Part shown: positions 4,641 to 38,489 of the stretch, in pieces
How positions within the stretch are numbered: the stretch's first letter is position 1
Layout: every line of letters begins with the position of its first letter
Source: an uncultured Candidatus Saccharibacteria bacterium
GTDB lineage: Bacteria; Patescibacteriota; Minisyncoccia; UBA6257; Colwellbacteraceae
Direction of reading: 5' to 3'
Assembly: GCA_964609135.1 (NCBI GenBank)
Contig: CAZSQQ010000001.1
Location: 56,673 to 120,672, forward strand
DNA: 64,000 bases
The notes under the pieces: generated by a model
Told to the model about the DNA's origin: nothing
What the model saw: the letters and a program-made list of their open reading frames with translations, nothing else
The model's database searches: none
Made by a program: the position numbers and the translations under genes

Positions 4641-4771
4641 TTTGGAGCCGAAGGCGAGAATCCCCCGCACCAGTCCGCCAACGGCGGACGGTGCGGGACT
4701 AGTCCAGCACCGAGCTTCGCTATGGTGCTGGGGAACCCGCGACCTTCACTTTACCCCTCACCTTTTTCAAG
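4641..4771 (-). other. GC-rich highly structured leader/possible small RNA between tRNA-Thr and prfB start
   Basis: Nested hairpins (CCCGCACC[GTCCGCC-N3-GGCGGAC]GGTGCGGG; CCAGCACC...GGTGCTGG); about 60% GC in an AT-rich genome; six-frame ORF over it implausible. Confidence 0.3.
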
Positions 4772-4845
4772 AGCCGAAGAGAGGAGTTGAACCTCCAACC
4801 TCTCCCTTACGAAGGGATTGCTCTGCCATTGAGCTACTTCGGCGT
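4772..4845 (-). tRNA. tRNA-Thr (anticodon CGU)
   Basis: Hand-folded cloverleaf: acceptor GCCGAAG/CTTCGGC, D-arm GCTC-AATGGCA-GAGC, anticodon loop TTCGTAA, T-arm GGAGG-TTCAACT-CCTCT; no encoded CCA. Confidence 0.8.
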
Positions 4846-4955
4846 AAAAGCATTATAACAAAAGGTGGGGACTCACGAAAGCACTGCCCCCGCCTGACGG
4901 CGGGCAAGTCTGCCACTGCTTGTCCGCCTCTGGCGGAAGCTACTTCGGCCTGAAA
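4846..4955. other. GC-rich hairpin-dense region (possible structured RNA/terminators)
   Basis: Hairpins GCCCGCC-GTCA-GGCGGGGGC and GTCCGCC-TCT-GGCGGA; about 60% GC. Confidence 0.25.
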
Positions 4956-4957
4956 AA

Positions 4958-5323
4958 CTATTTCTTAAACTGTCTCACAAATAGTACAATCGCCACAATC
5001 GCCAGCCCCACGTCCCTGAAGGTTATATCATCAACTCCGTAAAATACCAAGATTGAAGAAACATCGAGAAAGGCGAGAAGAGAAATAATGAGGGGTGCAA
5101 ATCCGGAAAGGAGAAGTACGCCCAGGATTACCTCCCCATAGCCGTGGGCCGTGAGAAAAATCTCTTTGGCTACGACTGTTTCTACCCAACCGGGCACGAA
5201 ACCGATCCAGTCGGTGGGATTCAATATTGATCTTGCCCCCGCCCAAATGATGGGTACACCAAGTGCCAGCCGAAGCAATAAATCTTCCTCACCGGCTAAT
5301 TTGCGAATCAACTTCAATACCAT
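4958..5323 (-). CDS. DoxX-family small membrane protein
   Basis: 121 aa, 3-4 predicted TM helices, DoxX-like pattern. Confidence 0.5.
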   Translation of the reverse strand: MVLKLIRKLAGEEDLLLRLALGVPIIWAGARSILNPTDWIGFVPGWVETVVAKEIFLTAHGYGEVILGVLLLSGFAPLIISLLAFLDVSSILVFYGVDDITFRDVGLAIVAIVLFVRQFKK

Positions 5324-6557
5324 TCTCTCTCACAATTTTCGCATATTCTCTGGCACTTTGTCTAACCCTCCGCCTCATATTTTTATAATTTACTTCGACC
5401 AGTCCGAACCTCGGCCAAAAACCTTTATCCCATTCGAAATTATCGAGAAGCGACCAATAAAAATAACCTCGAACATCGACCCCCTCTGCAACGGCTTTAT
5501 GGACGTTAAATAGAATTGACTTAACATACCAAGCACGATTTTCATCATTGGCATCGGCCAACCCATTTTCAGTGATATAAACCGGTTTCTTATACTTTTT
5601 CAAGTCCATTAAGGTACAGTAAATCCCTTTGGGATACAATTCCCAGCCCAAATCAGAAACAATCTTGTTTTCATTCTTCACCATCCATAAATCTAATAAT
5701 GCCCGGTGATAATAATTCAAGCCAATAAAATCTTGGTATTGGCTAATTTGGTCTATAAAATAAAGGTTCGTTAACCAATTCATAAATTTACTGATAAGTC
5801 GGTTGACCAATTTATTTTTATAAGCCTCGAAGCAGTTGTTAATACTAGCAATACCAACTCTGGCCCCTTTATTGAGGCCTTTTATGACTTTGAAAGCTTC
5901 CTCGTGAGCTCGAATAAGATTCTGCGTTACCAAAAAGCAAGAAATTAAATTCTTCTCTTGCGGAGGCCACCCCCCTGTTAAATAAGATTGCCCTACGAAA
6001 TTCAATGGCTCATTCAAAGTAATCCAAAATTTTATTTCATTTTTAAAAGCTTTGACTATTTTTTCAACATACCGGCTGAAATAATAAGGAGCTTGACTTG
6101 ATTTCCAGCCGCCTTTTTCAGCAAACCAGACGGGGTTGGTAAAGTGCCAGAGTGTGACAAAAGGCTCCAATCCCCTCTCACGAAGAGCTTTTATGACTTT
6201 TCGATAATGCTCAATTTCCTTTTCATTAAATTTACCTTCTTCCGGTTCAATTCTTGACCATTCAATGGAGAAACGATAGGCACTCATACCCAAGAATTTC
6301 ATTAAGTCAAAATCTTTCTCATAGAGGTTATAGTGGTCGCAGGCTTTGTGAGATATATAATTTTCTTCTTGCAACATCTCGGGGAACATTCCCTGTTGCC
6401 AAAACTGCCAATATTTTTTTGCCTTCTCGGCTAAGCGCTTGGCATTCCGCTTCTCCCACTCCGACCAGTCGTTTCTATTCCCGCCTTCAACCTGGTGTGA
6501 AGAAGTGGCCGCTCCCCAAAGAAAATTACCCGGAAACTTCAAGGTCTTTCTCATCAA
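5289..6557 (-). CDS. glycoside hydrolase family 1 (beta-glucosidase/6-phospho-beta-glucosidase)
   Basis: GH1 catalytic motifs TLNEP (acid/base) and YITENG (nucleophile); N-terminal FLWGAATSSHQVEG. Confidence 0.8.
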   Translation of the reverse strand: MMRKTLKFPGNFLWGAATSSHQVEGGNRNDWSEWEKRNAKRLAEKAKKYWQFWQQGMFPEMLQEENYISHKACDHYNLYEKDFDLMKFLGMSAYRFSIEWSRIEPEEGKFNEKEIEHYRKVIKALRERGLEPFVTLWHFTNPVWFAEKGGWKSSQAPYYFSRYVEKIVKAFKNEIKFWITLNEPLNFVGQSYLTGGWPPQEKNLISCFLVTQNLIRAHEEAFKVIKGLNKGARVGIASINNCFEAYKNKLVNRLISKFMNWLTNLYFIDQISQYQDFIGLNYYHRALLDLWMVKNENKIVSDLGWELYPKGIYCTLMDLKKYKKPVYITENGLADANDENRAWYVKSILFNVHKAVAEGVDVRGYFYWSLLDNFEWDKGFWPRFGLVEVNYKNMRRRVRQSAREYAKIVRENGIEVDSQISR

Positions 6558-6666
6558 TCATTGACCAAACATCATATTTATTATACCCTAAAGCATCACT
6601 TGAAAGGCGGTATCACCACAAATCTGGTCCGCCTTACGGGGCGGACCTTGACAACAAAAGAAAGGG

Positions 6667-7056
6667 GTGCAGGGAGGTCTAGCGATGCGTTACCTTCGCG
6701 ACAACTTGAGCGGACTCACAGTCTTCGCAATTGCGGCCATCGCCATCATCTCGGGAATCCCAGCGGGGCGAGCAACAGTCGCCTTCGGAGACTGGCGGGC
6801 AATGCTCCCGCTAGGCCTCGGGGCGGCATCTGCGATTCCGTTAGGAAGCCTCGCCGGCACGAAGTACGAAGATAGGTTCGTCACCACGGTGTTTTACAGC
6901 GTCGTGTTCGGGTCTTTCTTCAGCTTGGGAATGGTGATTGGCGGCGCCTACGATCCGCTCTTCTTCATTCTCGAGGTTGTACTTCTCGTCCTAGCCGTCT
7001 TCGGCGGAGCTGTTCTTGGCTTCACCGTCGTCGACCAGATCCGCAAGATAATGTAA
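6667..7056 (+). CDS. small membrane protein (GC-rich, likely foreign)
   Basis: 3-4 TM helices; GC markedly higher than flanks; start may be the internal Met at 6685. Confidence 0.4.
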   Translation: MQGGLAMRYLRDNLSGLTVFAIAAIAIISGIPAGRATVAFGDWRAMLPLGLGAASAIPLGSLAGTKYEDRFVTTVFYSVVFGSFFSLGMVIGGAYDPLFFILEVVLLVLAVFGGAVLGFTVVDQIRKIM

Positions 7057-7068
7057 AGGAGCGCGAAC

Positions 7069-7359
7069 ATGATTCTGTTTCTATCGGCCACCTGCGTAAT
7101 GGCCCTCGCGATTCAGGCATTGCTCCTCGGTCCCGCCTTCTTCGAGCGAGACCGAGACGCCTCATCGCGGCGATCCTTGGCTACCTTGGCCTTGGGAGCT
7201 GCGATCGTGACCTTCGTCACGGCAGCAATTCTCGTGAGGGGCGCCGACGAGAATGCCGTTAAGCTTCTCGTCATTCTCATCATGGGCGTTTCGGGAGCAA
7301 CGGCACTTCTCTTCGCGCTCTCCTACGGGCGGTTCCGAGGAGAAGGTGACGCACAGTGA
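7069..7359 (+). CDS. small membrane protein (GC-rich, likely foreign)
   Basis: 96 aa, 3 TM helices, same high-GC block as 6667-7056. Confidence 0.4.
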   Translation: MILFLSATCVMALAIQALLLGPAFFERDRDASSRRSLATLALGAAIVTFVTAAILVRGADENAVKLLVILIMGVSGATALLFALSYGRFRGEGDAQ

Positions 7360-7445
7360 GAGGCGGGTGATGCTCCACTGAACCCCTTTCACGCATAACC
7401 TGTGGGGGCGCGGTCCGAAGAGACTGCGCCCCCGCGAACAAAAGA

Positions 7446-7472
7446 AGAGCGTCCCTATGAGACGCTCTTTTA
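7446..7472 (+). terminator. rho-independent terminator (AGAGCGTC-CCTATGA-GACGCTCT-TTTT)
   Basis: 8-bp perfect stem followed by T-run; lies between convergent genes. Confidence 0.55.
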
Positions 7473-7488
7473 AAAAAGATGAAAAAAC

Positions 7489-8139
7489 CTAAACCTTGAG
7501 GATGCCCAATCCCAAGATTTTCACTAATTGCCCGCCCCAGACGAGCGTCAAGGCCGCCGATACAATGAAAGGCACGCCTAATGTGGTGTAAAGCTCTTTC
7601 AGCAATACCAGTCGAAAGAGAGAAATCACAACCACGGACAGAAAAACTAAGGGTACAAAAATCACGAAATTGGGCCAGCCGACGAGGAGAGCCGTTAAAA
7701 ACCCTAACTCCGTCTCATAGGGCTTGAAAAACCTTTCCTTATAGCGTTTGAGAAATTTGAGAAAGAGATAGAAAACAAAAGAGACCGCTAAAACAATGAC
7801 CAAGTTCAGCCAAAATCTGCCCCAGGAATAAAAGAGGAAATAACCCAACTGATTATCAAAGAAAAAACCGGGAATATCGTTTGTGGCGGGTATGTTTTTA
7901 TCAACCGGGGAGTTCAGCAGAGTTTTGGTAAATTCGTTATTTGACCAGACATAATATTGGCCAGTGGTGAGAAAAACAACATAGAATACCCTGAATAAAA
8001 TCGTTCCTGTAACCAACTTAAAAACAGCGCGGCTATTTCCGTGAAAATAAAAAAACGCGGCTAAAGCCAAAATCGTCGCCGTAAAAACTGTTGGCAACCG
8101 ACTCAAAAGCGGACCGACCAAAAAATCAGTTATATCCAT
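7489..8139 (-). CDS. polytopic membrane protein, unknown function
   Basis: Long ORF 7489-8466 trimmed to internal Met (MDITDF...) to avoid overlap with ArsR gene; multiple TM helices. Confidence 0.4.
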   Translation of the reverse strand: MDITDFLVGPLLSRLPTVFTATILALAAFFYFHGNSRAVFKLVTGTILFRVFYVVFLTTGQYYVWSNNEFTKTLLNSPVDKNIPATNDIPGFFFDNQLGYFLFYSWGRFWLNLVIVLAVSFVFYLFLKFLKRYKERFFKPYETELGFLTALLVGWPNFVIFVPLVFLSVVVISLFRLVLLKELYTTLGVPFIVSAALTLVWGGQLVKILGLGILKV

Positions 8140-8259
8140 AGTCTTTTTGAGTGTCTTTAGGACCGCGCTCGAACCTATTTTATCAAAAATTCCTGACCTG
8201 CGGAGAGGATTTATCCACAGTTGACACAGAAGTTGGTTGGGAGTAAGATTTAAGCAATT

Positions 8260-8595
8260 ATGCAAGTGCTTAACATGTTGACAAAAGAACAGGTAAACAA
8301 AATAAAGAAAGAGTTGTCGGGCGATGTAGACCGGATGCCTATCATTCTTGGCGCGTTGGGTGATCCGGGCAGATTCCGGATTTTCAAGCTGCTCATTGAA
8401 CACCACGATATTTGCGTGACGGATGTCGCAAATGTCTTTGACATTACAGTATCCGCGGCATCCCAACAGTTGAGGGTTCTAGAAATGCTGGAACTGGTCG
8501 AAAAAATGAGAATGGGGCAAATGGTTTGCTACGAACTTAAAAAAGAGAATCCCATTGTCAAAAAGTTAATACAATTTTCAAGGTCGGGGGAATAA
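8260..8595 (+). CDS. ArsR/SmtB-family transcriptional regulator
   Basis: wHTH: ...RFRIFKLLIEHHDICVTDVANVFDITVSAASQQLRVLEMLELV... Confidence 0.7.
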   Translation: MQVLNMLTKEQVNKIKKELSGDVDRMPIILGALGDPGRFRIFKLLIEHHDICVTDVANVFDITVSAASQQLRVLEMLELVEKMRMGQMVCYELKKENPIVKKLIQFSRSGE

Positions 8596-8617
8596 ATTAA
8601 AATTAAGTAATAAAAAT

Positions 8618-8854
8618 ATGTCAAAAATAACTATCTATACAACTCCAACATGCGTCTACTGCAAGGCAACAAAAGCGTTCTTCAAAGAAAACAACGTTAT
8701 TTATGAAGAGAGGGACGTTTCCGCGGATGCACAGGCCCGAGACGAAATGATTGCCAAGTCCAATCAGATGGGTGTGCCAGTTATCGATATCGATGGACAA
8801 ATTGTTACCGGGTTCGATAAAGCGAGATTGCAGGAACTTATTGGAATTAAATAA
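8618..8854 (+). CDS. glutaredoxin/NrdH-like redoxin
   Basis: 78 aa, CVYC active site at N-terminus, Grx fold pattern (GVPVI...). Confidence 0.8.
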   Translation: MSKITIYTTPTCVYCKATKAFFKENNVIYEERDVSADAQARDEMIAKSNQMGVPVIDIDGQIVTGFDKARLQELIGIK

Positions 8855-8856
8855 CT

Positions 8857-9831
8857 ATGATTTACGACCTGATCATTATCGGTTCTGGTGCTGCGGGTCT
8901 TTCCGCCGGAATTTATGCCGGCCGTTATCGCATGAAGGTTGCGCTTTTTGGAGGTGAATTTGGCGGCGAGACCGCTAAGGCTGGCGCTATTGAAAATTAT
9001 CCCGGTTTTAAATCGATTGACGGCTACGAGTTAATGGAAAAAATGAGCGAACAAGCCAAAGCTCTCGACATCGACTATATTGATGAAAAAGTCACAAGCA
9101 TGAAGCGAGAGCGACACTGCTTTGAACTAGGAGCCGGTGATAAAACATACGAAGCCAATGCCATTATATTGGCCGTTGGCGCAGAACGAAAACATCTCGG
9201 TCTTCCAAATGAGGAAGAACTTACCGGTCGCGGAGTGCATTACTGCGTCACCTGCGACGGGCCGGTATATAGCGGCAAAACAATCGCCCTGGTTGGCGGC
9301 GGAGACGCTTCGGTCAAGGGAGTAAATCTTGCCGCTGAATATGCGAAGAAGGTTTTTCTTATTGTGAGGAGCAAAGAAGTTGTCGCTGAACCGATCAATT
9401 ACGAGCAGATGAAAAAACTAGGGAGTAAGGTTGAGGTTCTTTTGGAGACAGCGGTTAAAGAAATAGTAGGTAAAGAAAAATTGGAGAAACTCGTTCTCTC
9501 AAAGCCGTATCGCGGCTCGACCGATCTTGTGGTTGATGGGGTTTTTGTCGAGATTGGCGCCGAACCCAGCGTTGAACTCGCAAAATCTCTCGGAGTCGAA
9601 TTGGACGAATACGGATATATTAAAGCTGATAACATGATGCGAACAAATATCGACGGCGTTTTTGCGGCAGGAGATGTCGTTAATCACTTCGGTCGATTCA
9701 AACAAGACATTACGGCGGCGGCGATGGGCGCGGTAGCTGCTACATCGGCATACGAAGATCATAAAATTCACGGCGATCTCTGTATGTTGCACGCAATGCC
9801 GCCAATGCAAACAAAAGTAGAAGTTAAATAA
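8857..9831 (+). CDS. trxB: thioredoxin-disulfide reductase
   Basis: FAD motif GSGAAGLSAG, redox CVTCDG, NADPH motif GGGDA. Confidence 0.85.
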   Translation: MIYDLIIIGSGAAGLSAGIYAGRYRMKVALFGGEFGGETAKAGAIENYPGFKSIDGYELMEKMSEQAKALDIDYIDEKVTSMKRERHCFELGAGDKTYEANAIILAVGAERKHLGLPNEEELTGRGVHYCVTCDGPVYSGKTIALVGGGDASVKGVNLAAEYAKKVFLIVRSKEVVAEPINYEQMKKLGSKVEVLLETAVKEIVGKEKLEKLVLSKPYRGSTDLVVDGVFVEIGAEPSVELAKSLGVELDEYGYIKADNMMRTNIDGVFAAGDVVNHFGRFKQDITAAAMGAVAATSAYEDHKIHGDLCMLHAMPPMQTKVEVK

Positions 9832-9842
9832 CTTTTATTGTT

Positions 9843-10100
9843 ATGCTTATAGATTTTTATGGAAAAGAGTGTCCGCATTGTCTAAGAATGACGCCGCTGG
9901 TGGGCCGCTTAGAAAAAGAGGCGGGCGTTAAGGTTGAAAGATACGAAGTTTGGCACGATGAAGAAAATGCAAAGAAAATGGAAGAATATGATAAGGGTCA
10001 GTGCGGCGGTGTTCCCTTTTTTATTAATACAGAAACTGGAGCCATGATTTGCGGCGAAGCTCCCTATGAAGAGCTGCGGGCTTGGGCTGGTGTAAAATAA
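9843..10100 (+). CDS. thioredoxin-family small protein
   Basis: 85 aa, CPHC active site. Confidence 0.6.
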   Translation: MLIDFYGKECPHCLRMTPLVGRLEKEAGVKVERYEVWHDEENAKKMEEYDKGQCGGVPFFINTETGAMICGEAPYEELRAWAGVK

Positions 10101-10106
10101 TCTTTA

Positions 10107-11158
10107 TGCAACTTAAACCAACATCAATTTTAATACTTTTTATAATCCTCATAGCCGGTTTTTTTGCATGGAGAACTCTTTTCCGAAATGACTTCAACTT
10201 ACCGCGTGGCGGTGAAACCACCAAAGAAACGGTAATTATTCAAAGTAACCAAGATGACAAAACGACAAAAGAAATCATGACTACAAACGGGGTAAAACAC
10301 AGCGTACCGCTTGACCAAATTTTAAGCGGCGGCCCGCCCAAAGACGGAATTCCGCCCATTGATCACCCCAAATTTATTTCTGTTCAGGAGGCAAGCAAAC
10401 AACTATCAGATAAGGAACCTGGGCTGGCTATAGAAATAGACAATGTCAATCGCTTTTATCCCTTCCAAATTTTGGTATGGCACGAGATTGTAAACGATAT
10501 CATAAATGGCAAACGTGTTCTCATCACTTACTGTCCCCTTTGCCTTTCGGGCATCGTCTTTGATCCTTTGGTAAATGGGGAAGGGGTCGAATTCGGCACT
10601 TCCGGCAAGCTTTGGAATTCAAACTTGGTTATGTATGACCGCAAAACTGATTCTTTGTGGTCGCAAATTTTGGGAAAAGCAATCGTGGGAGAAAAAACCG
10701 GAACGCGCCTCGCCGTTTTGCCGTCCGATCAGATTCGATTTGGAGAGTGGAAAAAACTGCATCCTAATGGAGAGGTGCTTTCGCGAGATACGGGAGCAAC
10801 GCGTTTTTATGGACAAGATCCGTACGGGGACTACTATACGACGCCCGGCACTTTCTTCCCGGTCGGGAAGCATGACAGCCGGTTGGGTGAGAAAGAATTT
10901 ATTTTAGGAATAGTAGTGAACGGTAAGGCCAAAGCCTATTGGCCGGCTGCAGTAAAAAAAGCCGGAACCATCGAAGATATTTTTGGGGGTAAGACAATCA
11001 TAGCCAAGTATGAGACAGATATTGATGCTGTACGCCTCTATTCCGCCGAAGGCGGATCCGCCTCTGGCGGAGAAAAGAAATTAGTGCGAATAAATCCGTT
11101 CGGCGCGTTCTGGTTTTCATGGGTGGCGGCGCATCCCGATACGGAACTTTATAAATAA
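10107..11158 (+). CDS. DUF3179-like secreted/membrane-anchored protein
   Basis: N-terminal TM, DGIPPIDHPKF motif typical of DUF3179. Confidence 0.5.
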
Positions 11159-11189
11159 AGGTCGAAAAATAAAAAATAATCAATACACT

Positions 11190-11573
11190 ATGTTTGAACA
11201 ACTAACGCAATACAACGACATCGGGCTCCTGATTCTACGCTTGGCGGTGGCGCTAATCTTTACCCATCACGCATTGCCAAAGCTTAAGAACGCCAAAGGC
11301 ATGGCGCAAATGGTAGGGATGCCTGCTCAAATGATATTTATGTTGGGCGGGGTAGAGTTTCTATCGTCGGTAGGATTAGTGCTCGGCATTTACACGCAGC
11401 TTGCCGCGGTGCTTCTGGGGATCGTTATGACGGGCGCAATCGGAATGAAAATGATGAAATGGCATGTTCCGTTTGCGGCAATGGATAAGACCGGCTGGGA
11501 GTTTGATTTGATACTGCTGGCCGCGAATATCGCAATTCTTTTCGGCGGCGGCGGATCAATCGGGATTCAATAG
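11190..11573 (+). CDS. DoxX-family membrane protein
   Basis: 127 aa, 4 TM, DoxX-like. Confidence 0.6.
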   Translation: MFEQLTQYNDIGLLILRLAVALIFTHHALPKLKNAKGMAQMVGMPAQMIFMLGGVEFLSSVGLVLGIYTQLAAVLLGIVMTGAIGMKMMKWHVPFAAMDKTGWEFDLILLAANIAILFGGGGSIGIQ

Positions 11574-11616
11574 CAAAGGTCGAAAAATTAATAAAGTAAT
11601 TTAGTCAACAAAAAAT

Positions 11617-11775
11617 ATGAACAATCAAAACGATCAACAAAAATTTGTCTGCAAGAGTTGCGGTTCGGAATCGCAAGGAAAGGCAAGAACATGCTGTGGC
11701 GCAGAACAAGAAGAGAAAAAAGAAGCCGGCACATGTATGGCATGCAGTTGCCCTTGTGACGAACACAAAGAGCAT
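11617..11775 (+). CDS. small Cys-rich protein (52 aa; 9 Cys, metal-binding-like), not in ORF track
   Basis: ATG at 11617; MNNQNDQQKFVCKSCGSESQGKARTCCGAEQEEKKEAGTCMACSCPCDEHKEHTHR; sits inside the redox cluster. Confidence 0.4.
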
Positions 11776-11798
11776 ACCCACAGATAAAGTGGGAAAAT

Positions 11799-12407
11799 AT
11801 GTCAGATACAAACACATTAGAACGACATAAACAAAAGAAAGCCGCTCGAGAGGCCGAGGCGCTTAAGATTCGCCGTAAAAAAGTTTTTAAAAAGACCGGT
11901 TATTGGATCGTGGGGCTGGCCGTCGTGATTGGGGGCGGATGGCTATTGATTCGCGGTGCGGGTCCTAAGGGGCCGGATTACAGTCAATCCGTGGAGATTC
12001 TTGGGCGAAACCATATACAGGAAGGAACAACCTTCAACGGCTATAATTCCAACCCACCTACATCCGGCAATCATTATCCCAATCCGGTGCCGGCTCGATT
12101 TTACGATAGAGAGTTGCCGGATGAACAGTTGGTGCATAATTTAGAGCACGGCCATGTTTGGATTGCTTATAAACCGAACTTATCGGGTGAGATTATTGAT
12201 ATTCTTAAAGTTTTCGGTGGCGGAAATATCGTTGTTACTCCGCGATCCAAAAACGATACCGATATTGCCTTGGCGGCTTGGGGTAGACTGGACAAATTCA
12301 ACATCGAAGCTGGCGGTATCGATCAACAACGCATTAAAGATTTCATTTCTCGCTATCAAAACAGGGGTCCTGAAAATGTAAGTATTCCTCGGAGTCATTC
12401 AAGATAA
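11799..12407 (+). CDS. DUF3105-like membrane-anchored protein
   Basis: N-terminal TM; PTSGNHY...LEHGHVWI motif typical of DUF3105. Confidence 0.5.
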   Translation: MSDTNTLERHKQKKAAREAEALKIRRKKVFKKTGYWIVGLAVVIGGGWLLIRGAGPKGPDYSQSVEILGRNHIQEGTTFNGYNSNPPTSGNHYPNPVPARFYDRELPDEQLVHNLEHGHVWIAYKPNLSGEIIDILKVFGGGNIVVTPRSKNDTDIALAAWGRLDKFNIEAGGIDQQRIKDFISRYQNRGPENVSIPRSHSR

Positions 12408-12412
12408 CAATT

Positions 12413-12934
12413 ATGAAAAAAACTTATCTTCTTACAATTATCGTCGCGGCGATTGTGATTGCTGTCTGGTTAGTAATTTCGAGAACGGGACAAAGTCCAA
12501 ATACATCCCCAATCCGTAGCCCAGCGATACCGGATTTTCATCTGCAGGATTATAACGGCAAGACGGTAAATTTTTCGGATTTTGCCGGAAAGCCAGTCCT
12601 CATCAATTCGTGGGCGTCTTGGTGTCCATTTTGCCGACAAGAGCTTCCTCACTTTGCCACTGCCCAAAAAGAGTTTGGCGATAAAGTGGTAATCATTGCC
12701 GTTGACCGGCAAGAGTCATTGGCAGTCGCAAAAGGATACACGGACGAGCAGGGAACGACCGGTAAGCTTGTTTTTCTGCTTGACCCGTCTGATTCCTTTT
12801 ATCAGTCTATCGGCGGATTTTCCATGCCGGAAACAATTTTCGTAGACAAAAGTGGAAACATTGTTGATCACAAACGAGGACCGATGGAAATAAGCGAGAT
12901 ACGTCAAAAAATTCAGAAATTACTCGCACTATAA
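12413..12934 (+). CDS. TlpA/ResA-like thiol-disulfide oxidoreductase
   Basis: N-terminal TM, WASWCPFC active site, redoxin fold. Confidence 0.75.
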   Translation: MKKTYLLTIIVAAIVIAVWLVISRTGQSPNTSPIRSPAIPDFHLQDYNGKTVNFSDFAGKPVLINSWASWCPFCRQELPHFATAQKEFGDKVVIIAVDRQESLAVAKGYTDEQGTTGKLVFLLDPSDSFYQSIGGFSMPETIFVDKSGNIVDHKRGPMEISEIRQKIQKLLAL

Positions 12935-12940
12935 ACAATC

Positions 12941-13606
12941 ATGAAAAATAATTCATTCGTTCCAATTTCAATTGTAGCCGCCGGCGTTATGATCGCGGGG
13001 ACAATTCTTTATACTGGAAGTAACCGCAATATCCAGGGCAGCATAATTCAAGGAGCTGCAAATCCGCCGGATGCGGGACGTAAAATCGAGGTTGTTATAG
13101 GAAACACGGACCCTTCGCTGGGGGAGAACGATGCACCGATTACGCTAGTAGCATTTGAGGATTTCGAGTGCCCGTTCTGTCAACGTTTCAACCAACAAAC
13201 ATTGCCATTGATTATTGACGAGCAAGTCAAAAGCGGCAAGGTTCGTTTTGTTTGGAAAGATTTTCCGCTTTCAATTCATTCGCATGCGGAGAAAGCTCAT
13301 GAAGCGGCTCGTTGTGCCTGGGAACAGGACAAATTTTGGGAGTACCACGATGTGCTTTTCAATAATCAAAACGGCCTTAGCGCCAACAATTTAAAACAAT
13401 ATGCTAAAAATCTCGATCTTAACGAGAGTCAATTTGTTTCCTGTTTAGACTCCGGCAAGTATACGAAACTTATAAGAGAAAAAGTCAGTGAAGGAACCGC
13501 TGCCGGAGTAAACAGCACCCCATCGTTTCTCATAAACGGCAGAATGGTTGTCGGTGCCCAGCCGTACCGAACTTTTGCCGACTTAATCGCCCAAGAAGCC
13601 CAGTAA
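12941..13606 (+). CDS. DsbA-family thiol:disulfide interchange protein
   Basis: N-terminal TM, FECPFCQRF active site. Confidence 0.75.
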   Translation: MKNNSFVPISIVAAGVMIAGTILYTGSNRNIQGSIIQGAANPPDAGRKIEVVIGNTDPSLGENDAPITLVAFEDFECPFCQRFNQQTLPLIIDEQVKSGKVRFVWKDFPLSIHSHAEKAHEAARCAWEQDKFWEYHDVLFNNQNGLSANNLKQYAKNLDLNESQFVSCLDSGKYTKLIREKVSEGTAAGVNSTPSFLINGRMVVGAQPYRTFADLIAQEAQ

Positions 13607-13612
13607 AATATT

Positions 13613-14371
13613 ATGGATTTCTCACTTATCATTCCAGCATTCATAGCCGGTCTTCTAACTTTTCTTGCTCCATGCACGCTGCCTTTGGTTCCTGGATATT
13701 TAGGTTTTATCAGCGGCATACCATTAGAAGATCTGAAAGATCCGACTAAATCCGGTTTGGCTCGCCGCAAAATCTTTATTAACGGCCTGTTCTTTACCGT
13801 CGGCTTTAGCGTCGTGTTTATAATTATGGGCACGTTAGTCGGTTTCGTCGGAGGTTCGCTCTTAGCACCTTATCGCTTATGGCTATCTCGTATCGGAGGT
13901 ATTTTCGTCATCATCTTCGGCCTTTTCATGCTGAATATTTTAAAGCTGCCATTTTTACAGCGTGAATTCCAAATAAAAACTCCTGCTCTATTTGGGAGAG
14001 GGCGTACGGTAAACTCATTTGTTTTGGGTAGCGCTTTCGCATTCGGATGGACTCCCTGCGTAGGACCGATTTTAGGTTCGATATTGTTGCTCGCCTCAAC
14101 ATCAACCACTACCTTGCAAGGAGCTCTTCTCTTGAGCGTGTTCTCTCTGGGATTGGCCCTGCCGTTTTTGGCCATCGCGGCGGGCATAGGTTCTGCATCT
14201 CGCCATGTTAATAATTTGTTGCGCTGGATGAATGCCATCTCCATTATTGGCGGAATATTCTTGATTTTTCTCGGTATACTTTTACTGACCGGCAATATTG
14301 GCCTTCTTATCTCCTACGGATACCAACTATTTCAATTCATTAACTACGAACGATTGCTTGATTATTTATAA
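13613..14371 (+). CDS. ccdA: cytochrome c-type biogenesis protein CcdA / DsbD transmembrane domain
   Basis: Two conserved Cys in TM helices (LAPCTLPLVPGY; WTPCVGPILG), 6 TM. Confidence 0.8.
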   Translation: MDFSLIIPAFIAGLLTFLAPCTLPLVPGYLGFISGIPLEDLKDPTKSGLARRKIFINGLFFTVGFSVVFIIMGTLVGFVGGSLLAPYRLWLSRIGGIFVIIFGLFMLNILKLPFLQREFQIKTPALFGRGRTVNSFVLGSAFAFGWTPCVGPILGSILLLASTSTTTLQGALLLSVFSLGLALPFLAIAAGIGSASRHVNNLLRWMNAISIIGGIFLIFLGILLLTGNIGLLISYGYQLFQFINYERLLDYL

Positions 14372-14444
14372 TCAAGTGAGTGAGTGAAATGAAAATGTCA
14401 ATTTTCATTTCCGAACGAACGCGAGTTATATCCAAGATATAATT

Positions 14445-14708
14445 ATGGTTAGGACAATAAAACAAAGCGAGAAAGATTTATACCAATGCGGGGAGTGCGG
14501 CTTTCATTACGAAGATCGCGTACAAGCCGAGAAATGCGAGGAGTGGTGCAAAGAACATCACAGTTGCAACATAAAAATCACTGCAGGTGACGGGAATCGA
14601 ACCCGCGTATCTTGCTTGCCCCGTGACCATAACAAGGATTGCTTGCTCTTTGTGAGCGGACGATGGGAATGGTTCGACTGCGCTCACCACAAGTCGAACC
14701 CCCTTTGA
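14445..14708 (+). CDS. small zinc-ribbon protein (paralog of 37228-37404); 3' end uncertain
   Basis: YQCGECGFHYED...KCEEWCKEHHSCN; the ORF has no stop until 14708 and runs through the tRNA-like element starting about 14582. Confidence 0.4.
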   Translation: MVRTIKQSEKDLYQCGECGFHYEDRVQAEKCEEWCKEHHSCNIKITAGDGNRTRVSCLPRDHNKDCLLFVSGRWEWFDCAHHKSNPL

Positions 14709-14712
14709 CCTT
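14582..14712 (-). other. tRNA-like element: canonical T-arm but no recognisable acceptor stem (tRNA fragment, unusual tRNA or tmRNA-related)
   Basis: minus strand ...ACGCGGGTTCGATTCCCGTCACCTGCA (T-arm plus 3' acceptor-like); an upstream GGGGGTTCGAC motif; no complementary 5' acceptor strand found by eye. Confidence 0.3.
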
Positions 14713-14740
14713 AGCCCCGCAGCAATTTTGCTTTATCTAA

Positions 14741-14811
14741 AGCGAGATACGAGAATCGAACTCGCGTCTCCACCTTGGGAAGGTGGCATACTGCCACTGT
14801 ACTAATCTCGC
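14741..14811 (-). tRNA. tRNA-Gly (anticodon CCC)
   Basis: Hand-folded: acceptor GCGAGAT/ATCTCGC, anticodon stem CCACC/GGTGG, loop TTCCCAA, T-arm GCGAG-TTCGATT-CTCGT; 71 nt, no CCA. Confidence 0.75.
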
Positions 14812-14818
14812 AAAATTG

Positions 14819-15094
14819 TTAATCCCGCTTCGGGGCGACAATGATCAATTTTTCTGCCGGGGCTTTATAATTTAACTTGCCTCTCGCTTCCTTTTCAAGA
14901 TTGCGGCTTTCGGAGAAATACTGGATCTTATCGTTCAACTTATCGCCGTCCTCAATCAAGGCTTGATATTCAGAGTTGATTTGAGAAAGCTCCTTTTTGA
15001 GATCCCGGCGGACTTTTTCGGTCGTATAAATCTGGTAGCTTATTACAGCCAAAGCCACTATAAAGATGAAGTACACTGGAAGCTTGTTCACCAA
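14819..15094 (-). CDS. septum formation initiator (FtsB/DivIC-like)
   Basis: 91 aa, N-terminal TM then coiled-coil (LKKELSQINSEYQALIE...). Confidence 0.55.
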   Translation of the reverse strand: MVNKLPVYFIFIVALAVISYQIYTTEKVRRDLKKELSQINSEYQALIEDGDKLNDKIQYFSESRNLEKEARGKLNYKAPAEKLIIVAPKRD

Positions 15095-15141: not shown

Positions 15142-16896
15142 CTAAATGCTCCCTTTCTTCAATAATTCCTTGAAAATTTCCGCCGGCACAGTCGCTTTTC
15201 CGGCCTCTTCAAGCTTCTTCTTGCCGGCCTTCTGCTTTTTCCAAAGCTTCATTTTTCTGGTTCTGTCTCCGCCGTAAAGTTTGGCGGTCACGTTTTTGCT
15301 TAAAGCCGGAATGGTCTCCCGCGCCATAATTCTTCCTCCCACGACCGCCTGGATCGCCTGGGCAAACTGCTTCCGCGGCAGAAGTTCTTTAAGCTTCACC
15401 GCCATCGTTCTTCCTTCGGCTTCAACGTCCTCTCTATGAATCACGCGGCTAAGCCCCGGCACCAACTCCCCGGCCAGCAAAACATCCAGCCTTTTCACGT
15501 CGGCCTTCCTAAAACCAATAATCTCGTAACTAAAGGATGCAAATCCCTCCGAAGCCGACTTCAATCGATCGTCAAAATCAAGAATCAACTCCGAGAGGGG
15601 CAGAGACGCTTCAATCATAACTCCACTGCCATAGTTTCGCGTTTCAATATCGGTCAGCCGAAAAGAATTGGTGAGCCCCAGTACCGCTCCCAAGAATTTT
15701 TGCGGCGTGAGGACTTTGAGACGAACCATTGGTTCCCGAACCTCTAAATACTCGTCGGGAAAATCCTTGGGATTCTCGATTATATTCTCTCCTGATTTGG
15801 TTCTCACCATATAAGCGACCGATGGAAAACTACTTACAACCGTAAGGCCGAATTCCCTTTCCAATCTCTCAATAGTAATTTCAAAATGAAGCCGTCCCAG
15901 GAATCCGCATTTAAATCCCCTACCCAAAACCAGATTGAAGTCCGGCGTGTAGATGAGCGATGAGTCATGGAGTTTCAACTTGCCCAAAGCTCTTTTCAAA
16001 TCATCGTAGTCGTCGCTCTCGTCCGGATACAACGAAACAAAAACCACCGGGCGGGAAACGGCGAATCCCGGCATTGGTTTTTCCCCAATCGTATCGCCTA
16101 TTTTTATAATTTCCGGATCCTTGATGCCGGTGGCAATGTATCCGATTTCATTCCCCGCCAATTCTTCAGTCGGATTAAATTCAGGAGCAAAGTATCCAAC
16201 CTCCTTGATTTTAAATTCATGATTGACCCCTAAAAGTTTTTGCATGTCCCCCGCCTTAAACTGGCCGCCGAAAACCCGAACAAAAGCCAGCACCCCCTTG
16301 TGATCGTGATAGAGCGAGCTAAATATCAGGGCGGCCTCTTCCTTTATGGATCTCGGGTCCGGAAATGATTTTATGACTGCGTCTAAAAGCTCCGGGACGC
16401 CCTCACCTGTTTTCCCGGAAACACGATAAATCTCGTCTTTCCCGACTGCCAAAAGCCGTGCCAAATCTTCGGTTAAGCCCTCCTGCCCCGGAGGATTGAG
16501 ATCAATTTTGTTCAAAGCTCCGATAACCTTTAATCCCGCGCCCTTGGCCATTTCCAGATTGGCGAGCGTCTGCGCCTGAATGCCCTGGGTTGCGTCAACG
16601 AGGAGTATGGCGCCTTCGACCGCTTTCAAGGCTCTCGAGACTTCATACGAGAAATCGCTGTGTCCAGGCGTATCAATCAAATTTAAAATTGCTCCCTTGT
16701 ATTGCATCCTGACGGGTGCCATTTTAATGGTAATCCCCCGTTCGCGTTCCAAGTCCAGGCGGTCCAAATATTGCGCTTTCATCTTATGGGGAGAAACAGC
16801 TCCCGTAATCTCTAAGAATCTGTCGGCCAAGGTGGACTTGCCATGATCGACATGGGCAATAATTACAAAATTTCTAATACTTTGATTCCTAATCAT
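15142..16896 (-). CDS. lepA: elongation factor 4 (LepA)
   Basis: G-domain AHVDHGKST, DTPGH, NKID; 584 aa with LepA-type C-terminus. Confidence 0.9.
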   Translation of the reverse strand: MIRNQSIRNFVIIAHVDHGKSTLADRFLEITGAVSPHKMKAQYLDRLDLERERGITIKMAPVRMQYKGAILNLIDTPGHSDFSYEVSRALKAVEGAILLVDATQGIQAQTLANLEMAKGAGLKVIGALNKIDLNPPGQEGLTEDLARLLAVGKDEIYRVSGKTGEGVPELLDAVIKSFPDPRSIKEEAALIFSSLYHDHKGVLAFVRVFGGQFKAGDMQKLLGVNHEFKIKEVGYFAPEFNPTEELAGNEIGYIATGIKDPEIIKIGDTIGEKPMPGFAVSRPVVFVSLYPDESDDYDDLKRALGKLKLHDSSLIYTPDFNLVLGRGFKCGFLGRLHFEITIERLEREFGLTVVSSFPSVAYMVRTKSGENIIENPKDFPDEYLEVREPMVRLKVLTPQKFLGAVLGLTNSFRLTDIETRNYGSGVMIEASLPLSELILDFDDRLKSASEGFASFSYEIIGFRKADVKRLDVLLAGELVPGLSRVIHREDVEAEGRTMAVKLKELLPRKQFAQAIQAVVGGRIMARETIPALSKNVTAKLYGGDRTRKMKLWKKQKAGKKKLEEAGKATVPAEIFKELLKKGSI

Positions 16897-36787: not shown

Positions 36788-37102
36788 TTATGCCAAACGC
36801 AGCCTTTTTAACAAAAGCTTATATCCGCCCGCTCCATGATGGAGCCAGTAATTGACCCTACTTATGGTTGCGGAGCTCATCTTGGTTTGATCCACAATTT
36901 CAAGAAAAGACACGCCCTTGGCCAGCATCTTGGCTACCTGCCAGCGTCTGGCCGCTTCCTGGATCTCCTCAAGCGTCAAAAGATCGCGGAAGAACCGCTC
37001 GCACTCGTCAACGCCCTTGAGCTCTAAAACGGCCTTATAAAGATCGTAAACCTCTCTAGTCCCAATAGTTTTCTCTACAGCTTTAGTCATATTCATTTTC
37101 AC
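36788..37102 (-). CDS. TrpR-like YerC/YecD family protein
   Basis: 104 aa, C-terminal HTH ...MSSATISRVNYWL... Confidence 0.6.
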   Translation of the reverse strand: MKMNMTKAVEKTIGTREVYDLYKAVLELKGVDECERFFRDLLTLEEIQEAARRWQVAKMLAKGVSFLEIVDQTKMSSATISRVNYWLHHGAGGYKLLLKRLRLA

Positions 37103-37227: not shown

Positions 37228-37404
37228 CTACCTATTGAAAGCCGACTTGCTCTCCAGAGAATCCTTAATTATGTCCAAATTACAGCTATGATTTTTACTG
37301 CACCAAGTCTCGCATTTCTTAGCCGTTTCTTCATCCTCATAATGAAATCCGCACTCCCCGCATTGATATAAAATTTTTCCTTCCTTCTCGGATTTGTTAA
37401 CCAT
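37228..37404 (-). CDS. small zinc-ribbon protein (58 aa), paralog of 14445 ORF; not in ORF track
   Basis: MVNKSEKEGKILYQCGECGFHYEDEETAKKCETWCSKNHSCNLDIIKDSLESKSAFNR; the antisense ORF 37183-37371 is spurious. Confidence 0.5.
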   Translation of the reverse strand: MVNKSEKEGKILYQCGECGFHYEDEETAKKCETWCSKNHSCNLDIIKDSLESKSAFNR

Positions 37405-38315: not shown

Positions 38316-38489
38316 TTACGCCGGCGGACAGCTACATTTTGGCTCTGCCTCACTGCATCCTCCGCACTTGGGCAGGAGATGCCGAGAACCGCACCGGTGA
38401 TTGGTATCGGGCTCCATTGCTTCGGCACCGCACACATCACACTTGTAACCGTCGGTCGGCATGCCGCAATTCATACAGCTTCCTTCCAT
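38316..38489 (-). CDS. small Cys-rich protein (57 aa, 11 Cys), not in ORF track
   Basis: MEGSCMNCGMPTDGYKCDVCGAEAMEPDTNHRCGSRHLLPKCGGCSEAEPKCSCPPA. Confidence 0.4.
   Translation of the reverse strand: MEGSCMNCGMPTDGYKCDVCGAEAMEPDTNHRCGSRHLLPKCGGCSEAEPKCSCPPA

Follow-up and report, generated by a model that had tools for sequence, protein, structure and literature searches.

The minus-strand segment 14582-14740 of the DNA analyzed here (64,000 nucleotides, hereafter the window) probably represents debris from the downstream side of a Russian-doll tRNA-Gly(CCC) locus, in which cassettes carrying the matching tRNA have repeatedly invaded and replaced the gene (probability about 0.72). We consider it about an even bet that such cassettes form an undescribed class of miniature hairpin-armed mobile elements in Patescibacteria. 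These elements would carry a tRNA gene, insert at the fifth nucleotide of the 7-nt loops of a matching tRNA gene and serially replace it, leaving stacked matched halves, and cargo-less hairpins would likewise invade T loops. No published description of the Russian-doll tRNA pattern was found in the literature.

The likeness of 14582-14740 to tRNA is far above chance. A T arm and acceptor-like motifs had been noticed on this strand earlier, and both CGCGGGTTCGATTCCCGTCACCTGCA and GGGGGTTCGAC are present within 14582-14722. The 19-mer GGGTTCGATTCCCGTCACC occurs once in the window and is matched in none of 100 shuffles. A tRNA-Gly(CCC) gene lies directly beyond the segment, as originally predicted. 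From this gene downstream, the pieces of the locus are:

14741..14811, minus strand: intact tRNA-Gly(CCC), innermost and presumably functional (ARAGORN; 64.3 bits with the Rfam tRNA model)
14715..14740, minus strand: right arm 1 (TTAGATAAAGCAAAATTGCTGCGGGG), a shortened linker ending CGGGG (alignment to the L092 arm)
14655..14714, minus strand: orphan tRNA-Gly 3' half #1 (junction alignment, equalled by 2 of 2000 shuffles)
14671..14694, minus strand: 24-nt T-loop insertion of half #1 (MFE -16.6 kcal/mol)
14619..14654, minus strand: right arm 2 (CACAAAGAGCAAGCAATCCTTGTTATGGTCACGGGG), a conserved linker (homologs are the right arms of L092, L096, L097, and L076)
14582..14618, minus strand: orphan tRNA-Gly 3' half #2 (nhmmer with a tRNA-Gly profile, E=3.8e-6)

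Both orphan halves begin at anticodon position 36. Half #1, which right arm 1 connects to the intact gene, reads C(T)AAGGTC-AAA-GGGGG-TTCG[insert]ATT-CCCAT-CGTCCGC-T, and it shares its 3' end exactly with the tRNA-Gly of L076 and L092. The 24-nt insert and the flanking T-arm bases form the hairpin GGTTCGAC..GTCGAACC. Half #2 reads CAA-GCAAG-ATAC-GCGGG-TTCGATT-CCCGT-CACCTGC-A with the T stem GCGGG/CCCGT, and positions 35-70 of the tRNA-Gly profile model match 14583-14618 in a search of the 64-kb window (at the E-value listed). Half #1 and the two arms can be aligned with their homologous counterparts in L092, L096, L097, and L076. The pieces qualify as tRNA-Gly(CCC) 3' halves, being homologous to tRNA-Gly between the anticodon loop and the discriminator base and having a T arm that can fold.

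The acceptor strands are informative. The intact gene has the acceptor stem GCGAGAT/ATCTCGC, and the 3' strands ATCTCGC, CGTCCGC, and CACCTGC cannot share one 5' strand. Each half therefore comes from a different complete gene. That no 5' acceptor strand pairs with CACCTGC had been seen before, and none is found nearby. The 5'-acceptor lookalike GCGGGGC at 14716-14722 is, by homology, the end of the linker arm (..CGGGG) followed by the start of an orphan half. A left arm complementary to right arm 2 is absent from the window, and since both 5' halves are absent as well, the history of the locus was rebuilt by homology only. The last codons of divIC (14823-14836) were considered as a hiding place for a left arm; pairing with arm 1 is marginal there (41 of 1000 shuffles are as good), and these bases encode the conserved ..PK.. 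end of DivIC. The read set SRR12113420 contains an identical divIC. A promoter and terminator scan gave nothing beyond shuffle expectation. The window is a metagenome-type assembly, and an independent contig (L002) breaks within the same tRNA-Gly. In L003-L009, the nearest relatives by LepA, the tRNA-Gly is plain, and thus the debris is sporadic and not ancestral.

Among the original explanations were an intron-containing or permuted tRNA, a piece of a tmRNA, and a tRNA-like regulatory structure. A reduced or permuted tmRNA, an intron tRNA or a tRNA-like regulator of the neighboring zinc-ribbon gene is essentially refuted. To the eye there is some resemblance to tmRNA: GCGGGGC can pair with CACCTGC over 5 bp with a G3:U70-like wobble, a UUCGAC motif is present, and GGGGCU..GGUUCGAC looks like the 5' end of a tmRNA. 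A pseudoknot could form from two interleaved helices, and in the RNAfold prediction the ends are closed (MFE -55.6 kcal/mol, z=-2.6). However, ARAGORN calls no tmRNA here even at the 70% threshold, no stop-terminated tag frame precedes the T arm, and the Rfam tmRNA model gives an 18-nt T-arm match only (13.9 bits, where the gathering score is 47). The lookalike GCGGGGC also has the other origin given above. As for tRNA, neither ARAGORN nor the Rfam model RF00005 finds a canonical one in 14582-14740 at default thresholds, which leaves the 3' halves only, and the window has no 5' halves. The single intron solution, offered by ARAGORN at the 80% threshold (a tRNA-Gly with a 27-nt intron), has a mismatched acceptor stem; other low-threshold calls are spurious. 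No evidence was found for a regulatory structure. The tRNA-Gly halves account for the entire segment piece by piece, and the puzzle of the window is resolved without an exotic tRNA or tmRNA. As a separate matter, complete tRNA-Gly genes split by an insert do exist at related loci.

The tRNA debris overlaps a small ORF on the opposite strand, which has a relative elsewhere in the window:

14445..14708, plus strand: DUF7128 zinc-ribbon ORF, copy 1 (87 aa), core to about 14579 (..HSCNIKI)
14580-14708, plus strand: codons 46-87 of copy 1, antisense to the tRNA debris
37228..37404, minus strand: DUF7128 paralog, copy 2 (58 aa), ended by an ordinary stop codon

The small protein is present twice, as originally noted, and both ORFs are DUF7128-like. 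Copy 2 belongs to Pfam DUF7128 (PF23447) with 29.7 bits, above the cutoff of 25.7; copy 1 stays under this cutoff with 20.3 bits, but its Cys residues are all conserved. The two copies are identical at 27 of 45 residues (60%; BLASTP E=2e-19). When the two are aligned, the likeness stops after HSCN(I/L)xI. Their DNA can be aligned in the coding core only, indicating diverged old paralogs rather than a recent duplication, and they are unconnected to the tRNA debris. Copy 2 ends cleanly at 58 aa. Copy 1 indeed has no stop after HSCN, and because its first stop codon is at 14706-14708, it runs on for 42 codons past the conserved core, antisense to tRNA-like DNA.

An integration had been suggested to disrupt the small gene. 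The apparent insertions struck the tRNA-Gly gene, in its anticodon loop, and not the small protein gene. The conserved core of DUF7128 is intact, and the non-conserved tail alone has been replaced by antisense-tRNA sequence. The tblastn matches of tail residues 42-75 are the antisense of tRNA halves in L076, L092, L096, L097, and L099. A homolog search with the 87-aa ORF found one relative only (P0001, 65 aa), whose tail is unrelated. The tail of copy 1 is incidental read-through into tRNA debris; the gene converges on the tRNA relics and crosses their antisense for the length of the tail. In this way the debris, which is easily mis-annotated, lengthens to 87 aa an ORF that would otherwise have about 58-65 aa.

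The full arrangement from which the window's debris would derive is seen in relatives. About 25 related Patescibacteria loci consist of an outer 5' half, a left arm, an intact inner tRNA, a right arm, and an outer 3' half. The whole nested architecture is found in L010, L055, and L076, and L022 has it too, except that its 5' half is a degraded anticodon-loop remnant only. It is also found in 17 of the 19 metagenome loci retrieved with a junction pattern (GGGGCAAG followed by a T arm), a sample that this pattern skews to this arm family and to tRNA targets. Every break falls at the anticodon and there are up to three layers. Inserts are 103-150 nt long, consist mostly of tRNA and contain no ORF; the L096 unit, an intact nest, measures 218 nt. 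Like terminal inverted repeats, the two arms of an insert pair with each other in each of the 14 elements examined (dG -20 to -38 kcal/mol), although arm sequences diverge beyond the first ~9 nt. Complementarity between leader and trailer is found only in tRNA-Gly genes with relic halves; "clean" genes are without it. The linker between arm and complete tRNA can be as short as 1-2 nt (L088). CAAG flanks the elements on both sides at anticodon-loop sites, and T-loop sites are without duplication. The outer gene is split and the inner gene is intact with the same anticodon, as seen for Gly CCC, Gly GCC, Glu TTC and Glu CTC. The same pattern is found with other matching tRNAs, namely Gly(GCC) in L086, Glu(TTC) in L083, Glu(CTC) in L044, and Thr(CGT) in the window. 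The inner tRNAs were considered as defective decoys, since 3 of 20 inner genes have an unusual T loop, TCCGA; this was ruled out because uninterrupted genes have it just as often (6 of 41 clean genes). The inner tRNAs appear, from their sequences, as healthy as uninterrupted ones.

The proposed mechanism is as follows. A cassette of ~100-150 nt, made of a left arm, a complete tRNA-Gly(CCC) gene and a right arm, would enter the anticodon loop of a resident tRNA-Gly(CCC) gene. Its arms are complementary over 12-22 bp, ending CCCCG.../...CGGGG. The resident gene would be cut at about position 36, giving an orphan 5' half (..TTCCCAAG) and an orphan 3' half (CAAG..). The cassette tRNA would take over the function, probably transcribed from the resident promoter, and the arm helix probably allows it to fold and be excised as a separate domain. 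The next cassette would invade the new functional gene likewise, and the halves would accumulate in layers. In the window, the intact innermost gene is followed by two arm-plus-3'-half units; both 5' halves and both left arms would have been lost. The orphan halves are probably non-functional relics.

A different reading of the nested loci is that the arm-tRNA-arm insert is a new bacterial tRNA intron. It would be removed at the RNA level, one transcript would yield at least two tRNA-Gly, and the window would hold decayed exons. When the insert is excised in silico, ARAGORN calls a tRNA-Gly in all 11 cases, and in 8 of them the acceptor, anticodon and T stems are perfect. The mismatched stems are explained by missing layers, and this reassembly also counts in favor of the cassette reading. 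Eight of the 11 outer split genes combine flawless stems with canonical conserved bases, which agrees with very recent insertion but also with selection on the spliced product. Moreover, the predicted fold of the L096 transcript is one cloverleaf inside another (MFE -85.9 kcal/mol, z=-5.6), and the arms recall the complementary flanks of Nanoarchaeum split tRNA genes. Against removal at the RNA level, halves are lost or mismatched in the window and in L022, L024, L055, L076, L088, L091, L092, L095, and L099. Since this is so often the case, the outer genes are dispensable. An extra 20-nt palindrome is frequent in the outer 5' halves, and no 5' half remains in the window. Bulge-helix-bulge motifs with 3-4-3 bulges could not be drawn by hand at the junctions, where the predicted fold has one 5-nt bulge and a continuous arm helix. 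The group I intron core (Rfam Intron_gpI) has no match in the window or the nested loci, no other ribozyme or intron family of Rfam is found in the complete nests, and the inserts are too short and mostly tRNA. No bacterial pathway is known that cuts and religates such a transcript. We regard a tRNA intron as very improbable.

Mobility of the cassettes is suggested by comparison among genomes. The outer gene of L085 is 94% identical to the inner gene of L099, and the outer 3' half of L099 is 97% identical to the inner gene of L085. Likewise, the outer gene of L010 is 96% identical to the inner gene of L092, and the innermost type of the window is the outermost layer of L092. Thus, the nesting order is reversed between genomes. 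The layers differ by 10-25% in sequence. The identity of the pieces, where they begin and end, their arrangement in relatives and the complementarity of the arms are shown. We infer mobility from the reversed order and the mismatched layers rather than having demonstrated it, because no transposase, integrase or ribozyme was found inside the elements.

The missing enzyme is also what would be expected of a local rearrangement with no mobile element, in which tandem tRNA-Gly duplications were followed by deletions, inversions and hairpin template switching. Tandem duplication is frequent at tRNA genes, and within the 24-nt insert of half #1 the adjoining T-arm bases recur in inverted form, as template switching might leave them. 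Tandem duplication, however, cannot nest a complete gene between the halves of another at the same nucleotide in about 25 independent loci and five tRNA species. Nor does it fit the divergence of the layers, their reversed order, or arms that are conserved, mutually complementary and missing from uninterrupted genes. Polymorphic presence of identical cassettes in unrelated tRNA-Gly backgrounds, which would also speak against it, is partly seen in the comparison among genomes. Such a local origin is quite improbable.

The cassette reading was also weighed against scars of integrase-bearing islands, in which the 3' end of tRNA-Gly would have been replaced and the island bodies later deleted to short stubs. 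Orphan 3' fragments starting in the anticodon loop are a textbook mark of anticodon-loop integrases (Islander, PMC4383910). In L090, the 3' half of tRNA-Gly(UCC) recurs perfectly over 37 nt about 210 nt after the gene, strains differ in what follows the tRNA (L094 versus L085), and in the window the debris is followed by ~10 kb of lineage-specific genes. In islands, however, the gene is rebuilt with a compatible 3' end, and the fragments are 3' fragments only and lie kilobases away (PMC4383910). Old and new 3' halves should then fit the same 5' half, whereas the three acceptor strands in the window are mutually incompatible and no interchangeable 3' half was found. Relatives have matching nested 5' halves upstream, which 3'-end replacement does not yield. 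The pieces in the window are only 26 and 36 nt apart, and the "stubs" are complementary arms set tightly on a complete tRNA, unlike the product of random deletion. No integrase or recombinase is encoded near the locus (ten ORFs of 4958-13606 in the span 4843-14584), and none of the window's sequence repeats a 3' half in a way that would bound an island. The search for an integrase or att-like repeats, proposed with the original prediction, therefore came out negative, and island scars are unlikely. Of the original idea of a tRNA remnant left by integration, tRNA-gene debris apparently produced by insertions stands; it consists of two stacked 3' halves with arms rather than one remnant.

No integrase or transposase lies beside L094 or L085, no protein family is enriched near the nested loci, and no pair of an empty and a filled site was found within one population. 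In IMG/VR, the right-junction pattern gave 0 hits and the left-junction pattern 71. None of the 71 has a tRNA-Gly half at the match position, and they are therefore taken as chance; the sole tRNA-profile hits among them belong to an unrelated tRNA array elsewhere in L122. A phage database gave generic T-arm or attP-like 35-nt matches only.

Several known systems share features with these loci. In tRNA-dependent lysogeny of actinobacteriophages, it is reported that the phage breaks a host tRNA gene, which is not repaired, and compensates with its own tRNA of the same isotype (Guerrero-Bustamante & Hatfull 2024, PMC10865867). Here too a matching tRNA gene is broken and a replacement is brought. 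The invading units there are entire phages, which have a tyrosine integrase and a common core of ~10 bp. The elements described here are 100-150 nt long with no protein gene and no tyrosine integrase of their own, have complementary arms and an exact anticodon-loop site, are layered and occur in Patescibacteria. Islands at tRNA and tmRNA genes are similar in having orphan fragments beside an intact tRNA, an anticodon-loop breakpoint and arrays formed by repeated events (Islander, PMC4383910); they differ in that the elements here leave incompatible acceptor strands and matched 5' and 3' halves, with tens of nucleotides between the pieces. The annotation pitfall resembles that of tRNA fragments mistaken for genes (PMC9897764).

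The elements are similar to bacterial MITEs in being tiny, non-coding and hairpin-armed, and cargo-less hairpin versions of them exist as well; CAAG may be a target duplication. Bacterial MITEs and elements of the Correia, RPE and REPIN type are tiny and non-coding, have terminal inverted repeats and a long hairpin, and may have a short target duplication. We are aware of no MITE with a tRNA gene as cargo, nor of one that targets the fifth nucleotide of a 7-nt loop in a matching tRNA gene. Group I introns of bacterial tRNA genes are also inserted in the anticodon loop and are frequent in metagenome-derived phyla, but they have a catalytic core that is missing here. In archaeal split and intron-containing tRNAs (Nanoarchaeum, BHB), halves are broken in the anticodon loop and complementary GC-rich sequences follow the 5' half and precede the 3' half. 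The anticodon-loop break and the arms next to the halves are alike in the present loci, which by contrast are bacterial and without a bulge-helix-bulge, often lose halves and have a complete tRNA in between. No bacterial splicing endonuclease is known.

The debris in the window points to recurrent destruction of tRNA genes in Patescibacteria and their replacement by hairpin-armed cassettes of ~100-150 nt. Among strategies of the kind "break the host tRNA, bring your own", none smaller would be known. Where a genome has single-copy tRNAs, the process may newly contribute to the turnover of tRNA alleles and to horizontal transfer, and it offers a testable model for the origin of split or intron-bearing tRNA genes with complementary flanks. 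If the proposed class exists, transcripts of intact nests would include two tRNA halves joined by complementary arms, which would be a bacterial route to split tRNA of the Nanoarchaeum type. Note that tRNA counts and small-ORF calls near such loci can be distorted.

A second example is present in the window itself, at its other tRNA gene:

4771..4843, minus strand: intact tRNA-Thr(CGT), the window's second tRNA gene, with the same kind of debris downstream
4754-4770, minus strand: arm (..GGTGAGGGG), preceding an orphan tRNA-Thr 3' half
4733-4753 and 4646-4661, minus strand: orphan tRNA-Thr 3' half, from position 36 (local alignment to the intact tRNA-Thr)
4662-4732, minus strand: 71-nt double-hairpin insert in the T loop of this half (MFE -49 kcal/mol)

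None of 2000 shuffles aligns to the intact tRNA-Thr as well as the orphan half does. Displacement of the Gly-locus fragment from tRNA-Thr was considered and ruled out, as the 3' ends differ.

The tRNA-like debris beside tRNA-Gly(CCC) in the window reveals what seems to be a recurrent and so far undescribed system of tRNA-replacement cassettes in Patescibacteria. The elements of the original prediction are all present: two small DUF7128 zinc-ribbon ORFs, a T arm with an acceptor-like strand and a GGGGGTTCGAC motif on the minus strand of 14582-14722, and the adjoining tRNA-Gly(CCC). Across the whole window, ARAGORN and Rfam find only this gene (14741-14811) and tRNA-Thr(CGT) (4771-4843). In the odd segment they give nothing beyond an 18-nt T-arm match, which speaks against the proposed tmRNA or permuted tRNA. 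No credible tRNA or tmRNA appears there even with lowered ARAGORN thresholds. A tRNA-Gly profile matches window 14583-14618 as model positions 35-70 (E=3.8e-6). The window was re-parsed by alignment to four related loci (L092, L076, L096, and L097) and exact string mapping. "Arms" are the complementary linkers that flank an intact inner tRNA.

Features of the window tRNA-Gly locus and the DUF7128 ORFs
14741-14811, minus strand: intact tRNA-Gly(CCC), acceptor GCGAGAT/ATCTCGC
14715-14740, minus strand: right arm 1, shortened, end ..GCTGCGGGG (alignment to relatives)
14655-14714, minus strand: 3' half #1, C(T)AAGGTC AAA GGGGG TTCG[24 nt]ATT CCCAT CGTCCGC T (alignment to relatives)
14619-14654, minus strand: right arm 2, ..GCAAGCAATCCTTGTTATGGTCACGGGG (~85-90% identity to L092 arms)
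14582-14618, minus strand: 3' half #2, end CACCTGC-A (alignment to relatives)
14445-14708, plus strand: DUF7128 ORF copy 1, 87 aa (MVRTIKQSEKDLYQCGECGFHYED..HSCNIKITAGDG..) (ORF reading)
37228-37404, minus strand: DUF7128 ORF copy 2, 58 aa (ORF reading)

By this parse, the seeming 5' acceptor strand GCGGGGC spans the junction from an arm into a half. The T arm of half #1 accounts for the GGGGGTTCGAC motif; a 24-nt insertion (14671-14694) interrupts this T arm and makes an 8-bp hairpin, GGTTCGAC/GTCGAACC. Neither 5' halves nor left arms are present at the window tRNA-Gly, and the divIC stop lies 8 nt upstream of the gene. The last divIC codons, ..GCCCCGAAGCGGGATTAA (14812-14845, minus strand), are left-arm-like and pair weakly with right arm 1 (dG -14.7 kcal/mol). 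As 41 of 1000 shuffles were as good, support for a left-arm remnant is marginal, and the likeness is possibly coincidental, the ..PK.. motif being a conserved feature of DivIC. L002, an independent Logan assembly (SRR12113420) with identical DivIC, stops inside tRNA-Gly at position 57 of 71 (5284-5340), consistent with an assembly break at repeated tRNA pieces.

The extension of the DUF7128 copy 1 reading frame into this debris is incidental. The two copies share 27 of 45 residues (E=2e-19), and, as the paralog alignment confirms, similarity stops after HSCN(I/L)xI. Their DNA is alignable within the coding core only, indicating old paralogs and excluding a recent duplication. Both match the 44-position Pfam DUF7128 profile, copy 2 above and copy 1 below the gathering cutoff. 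With the 87-aa sequence as query, only one database relative was found, a protein of 65 aa (P0001) whose tail differs again. The profile length and this different tail put the end of the family core near residue 45 and leave copy 1 with a non-conserved tail of 42 residues. The ORF runs into the tRNA debris at 14580-14582 and stays open as far as 14706-14708, its first in-frame stop; a 42-codon stretch without a stop is not unusual (chance ~0.14, a rough estimate). Since tblastn matches of the tail in other loci coincide with tRNA halves read in antisense, the tail is a by-product. The window feature itself is inert debris. Near copy 2 are an adjoining TrpR-like gene (36788-37102) and a 57-aa Cys-rich ORF, MEGSCMNCGMPTDGYKCDVCG..CGGCSEAEPKCSCPPA (38316-38489, minus strand), possibly another small metal-binding protein.

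Both tRNA genes of the window bear such debris. tRNA-Thr(CGT) (4771-4843, minus strand) is followed by an arm ending GGTGAGGGG (4754-4770) and then by an orphan 3' half, which begins at anticodon position 36. The acceptor strand of this half, CTTCGGC, is identical to that of the intact gene, and its T loop is interrupted by a 71-nt double hairpin (4662-4732). The architecture of the whole (4646-4843) equals that at tRNA-Gly.

When the 142-nt segment was searched against 80 related loci with nhmmer, matches were found directly after tRNA-Gly in L076, L055, and L022. The tRNA-Gly profile places extra half-genes beside the intact gene in many relatives, the break always being at about model position 35, in the anticodon. 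Their layout is nested, most clearly in L010: an outer 5' half (..TTCCCAAG), a short linker, the intact tRNA-Gly(CCC), another short linker, and an outer 3' half (CAAG..). A metagenome scan by the right-junction pattern GGGGCAAGNNNNANACGNNNGTTCGATT gave 19 loci, 17 of them nests; L095 has only a lone arm and 3' half. L101 was rejected as a chance pattern match inside a high-GC ORF. In the consensus unit, the 5' half is followed by the left arm (CCCCGYACC..), 0-15 nt, the complete inner tRNA, 0-15 nt, the right arm (..GGTRACGGGG), and the 3' half. Each of the 14 elements examined has pairing arms (dG -20 to -38 kcal/mol), a conserved bulge of one base being frequent, and the inner arm sequences vary among elements with complementarity kept. 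Upstream-downstream complementarity is found only at tRNA-Gly genes with relic halves (z -2.8 to -5.8) and is absent around uninterrupted ones (z about 0). The arms belong to the insert. The outer genes were once complete: with the insert deleted in silico, ARAGORN accepts all 11 cases as tRNA-Gly, 8 of them having perfect stems.

Layers also accumulate, as 5', 5', intact, 3' in L089 and as 5', intact, 3', 3' in L092. The surviving 5' half of L092 pairs with the outermost 3' half and not the middle one, so single halves can be lost. The same layout holds other cargo, namely Gly(GCC) in L086 and L087, Glu(TTC) in L083, and Glu(CTC) in L044; the smallest cassette is 103 nt (L088). Rfam detects no RNA families besides tRNA in complete nests. 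Insertion occurs at a fixed point: the first nucleotide of the right flank is anticodon position 36 (35 in one Glu case), and CAAG (positions 36-39) occurs on both sides of the insert. Cargo anticodon always equals that of the target, and the orientation does not vary. Inner tRNAs are no less canonical than uninterrupted ones, implying that they are the working genes.

Could the window debris be the usual scar of an integration? Where integration replaces the 3' end of a tRNA gene, one and the same 5' half has to pair with both the new 3' end and the fragment that it displaces. The three acceptor strands in the window (ATCTCGC, CGTCCGC, and CACCTGC) are mutually incompatible and unable to share one; each layer was therefore once a complete, different tRNA-Gly gene. 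Moreover, relatives hold matching 5' halves in nested order, the pieces are only tens of nucleotides apart, and no integrase is found nearby, including at the window locus. The original idea of a tRNA remnant was right in spirit; those of a tmRNA, a permuted tRNA, or a regulatory structure are not supported. We have high confidence in the anatomy of the debris and nests. The one case with the look of a classical attL/attR pair is L090 (100-345 of the locus, minus strand), where an arm-type hairpin and a perfect 37-nt copy of the gene's own 3' half lie ~210 nt beyond tRNA-Gly(UCC).

tRNA-Gly alleles exchange roles from one genome to another. The L010 outer gene is 96% identical to the L092 inner gene. 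The L085 outer gene is 94% identical to the L099 inner gene, and the L099 outer 3' half is 97% identical to the L085 inner gene, a reversed nesting order. The ATCTCGC-type allele is innermost in the window and outermost in L092. In the window, L092, and L076 alike, one kind of right arm lies downstream of the CGTCCGC-type half, indicating that arm and tRNA travel together. In the closest relatives by LepA, tRNA-Gly is uninterrupted. Vertical inheritance or local duplication would fit these observations less well than repeated invasion does, and we put the probability that the cassettes are mobile at about 0.65.

Patescibacteria MAGs (Paceibacteria/Colwellbacteria-like) have LepA proteins with 57-69% identity to that of the window (15142-16896, minus strand). 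The order lepA, divIC, tRNA-Gly(CCC) is common among the 80 related loci, often with tRNA-Thr(CGT) next within 0-3.5 kb. In the window the two tRNAs are ~10 kb apart (4844-14581), with genes for thioredoxin-reductase-like, DUF3179, two DoxX, DUF3105, redoxin, DsbA, CcdA, and DUF7128 proteins and no recombinase between them. The redox genes are missing at the equivalent position in relatives; the stretch is possibly an island sitting in a tRNA hot spot. A GH1 glycosidase gene also lies there, beside the redox/disulfide genes.

A probable route is as follows. The resident promoter would drive transcription of the inner gene, and the arm helix would prolong the inner acceptor stem, setting the inner tRNA apart as a separately folding domain on which RNase P and 3' processing can act. 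For the L096 unit, RNAfold predicts one cloverleaf nested inside another (z=-5.6). Only same-orientation insertions of a matching tRNA would survive, because they replace what they break, and the outer halves would later decay or be deleted. Our confidence in any specific insertion mechanism is low. No catalysing enzyme was found among the window inter-tRNA ORFs, the L094 and L085 neighbours, proteins near nests, or viral contigs, or by Rfam on the nests.

In form, the units resemble MITEs and, having halves with complementary flanks, archaeal split tRNAs. The closest functional match is tRNA-dependent lysogeny, in which an incoming phage disrupts a tRNA of its host and brings a replacement (PMC10865867); there, unlike the cassettes, whole phages with integrases are involved. 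The cassettes share the defining features of these three systems only in part. In the full-text literature, as far as coverage extended, no description was found of a bacterial tRNA gene nested in a matching tRNA gene's anticodon loop.

Relic halves (half #1 and the tRNA-Thr relic in the window, and one in L094) also have cargo-less hairpins with similar ends in their T loops. As in the anticodon loop, these are placed before the 5th loop nucleotide, which hints at a structure-specific target. The L094 insert (9275-9310) has CCCCG..CGGGG ends, as in cassette arms. Orphan 5' halves at the loci listed below contain a 20-nt perfect palindrome, CCTGCCTGCC|GGCAGGCAGG, bordered directly by the 5' strand of the anticodon stem on one side and by TTCCCAA on the other. 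It has grown to ~90 nt in L032, and in L010 the inner tRNA lies within a CCTGCC/GGCAGG helix. A second arm family or a footprint of excision is the probable explanation. Hairpins of 68-79 nt with conserved ends CCCCG(T/C)TAGA...TCTAA(A)CGGGG are also dispersed outside tRNA genes on three unrelated contigs, one shared with the gene of P0001, and possibly make up a family of small palindromic repeats in these genomes.

Palindromes and dispersed hairpins (locus coordinates)
L021, 6719-6738: 20-nt palindrome
L055, 5569-5608: 20-nt palindrome
L085, ~5850-5869 (= L094, L098): 20-nt palindrome
L100: 20-nt palindrome
L032, 6829-6915: 20-nt palindrome, grown form
L089, 6226-6304: dispersed hairpin
L001, 1028-1095: dispersed hairpin
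L055, 2213-2281: dispersed hairpin

The near-identical strains L094 (9250-10790) and L085 (6050-6065) differ by ~1.6 kb directly after the nest, upstream of pgk. The extra L094 DNA encodes a TrpR-like HTH protein and a methyltransferase between repeated GCTTCCATTGANGGAAGC hairpins.
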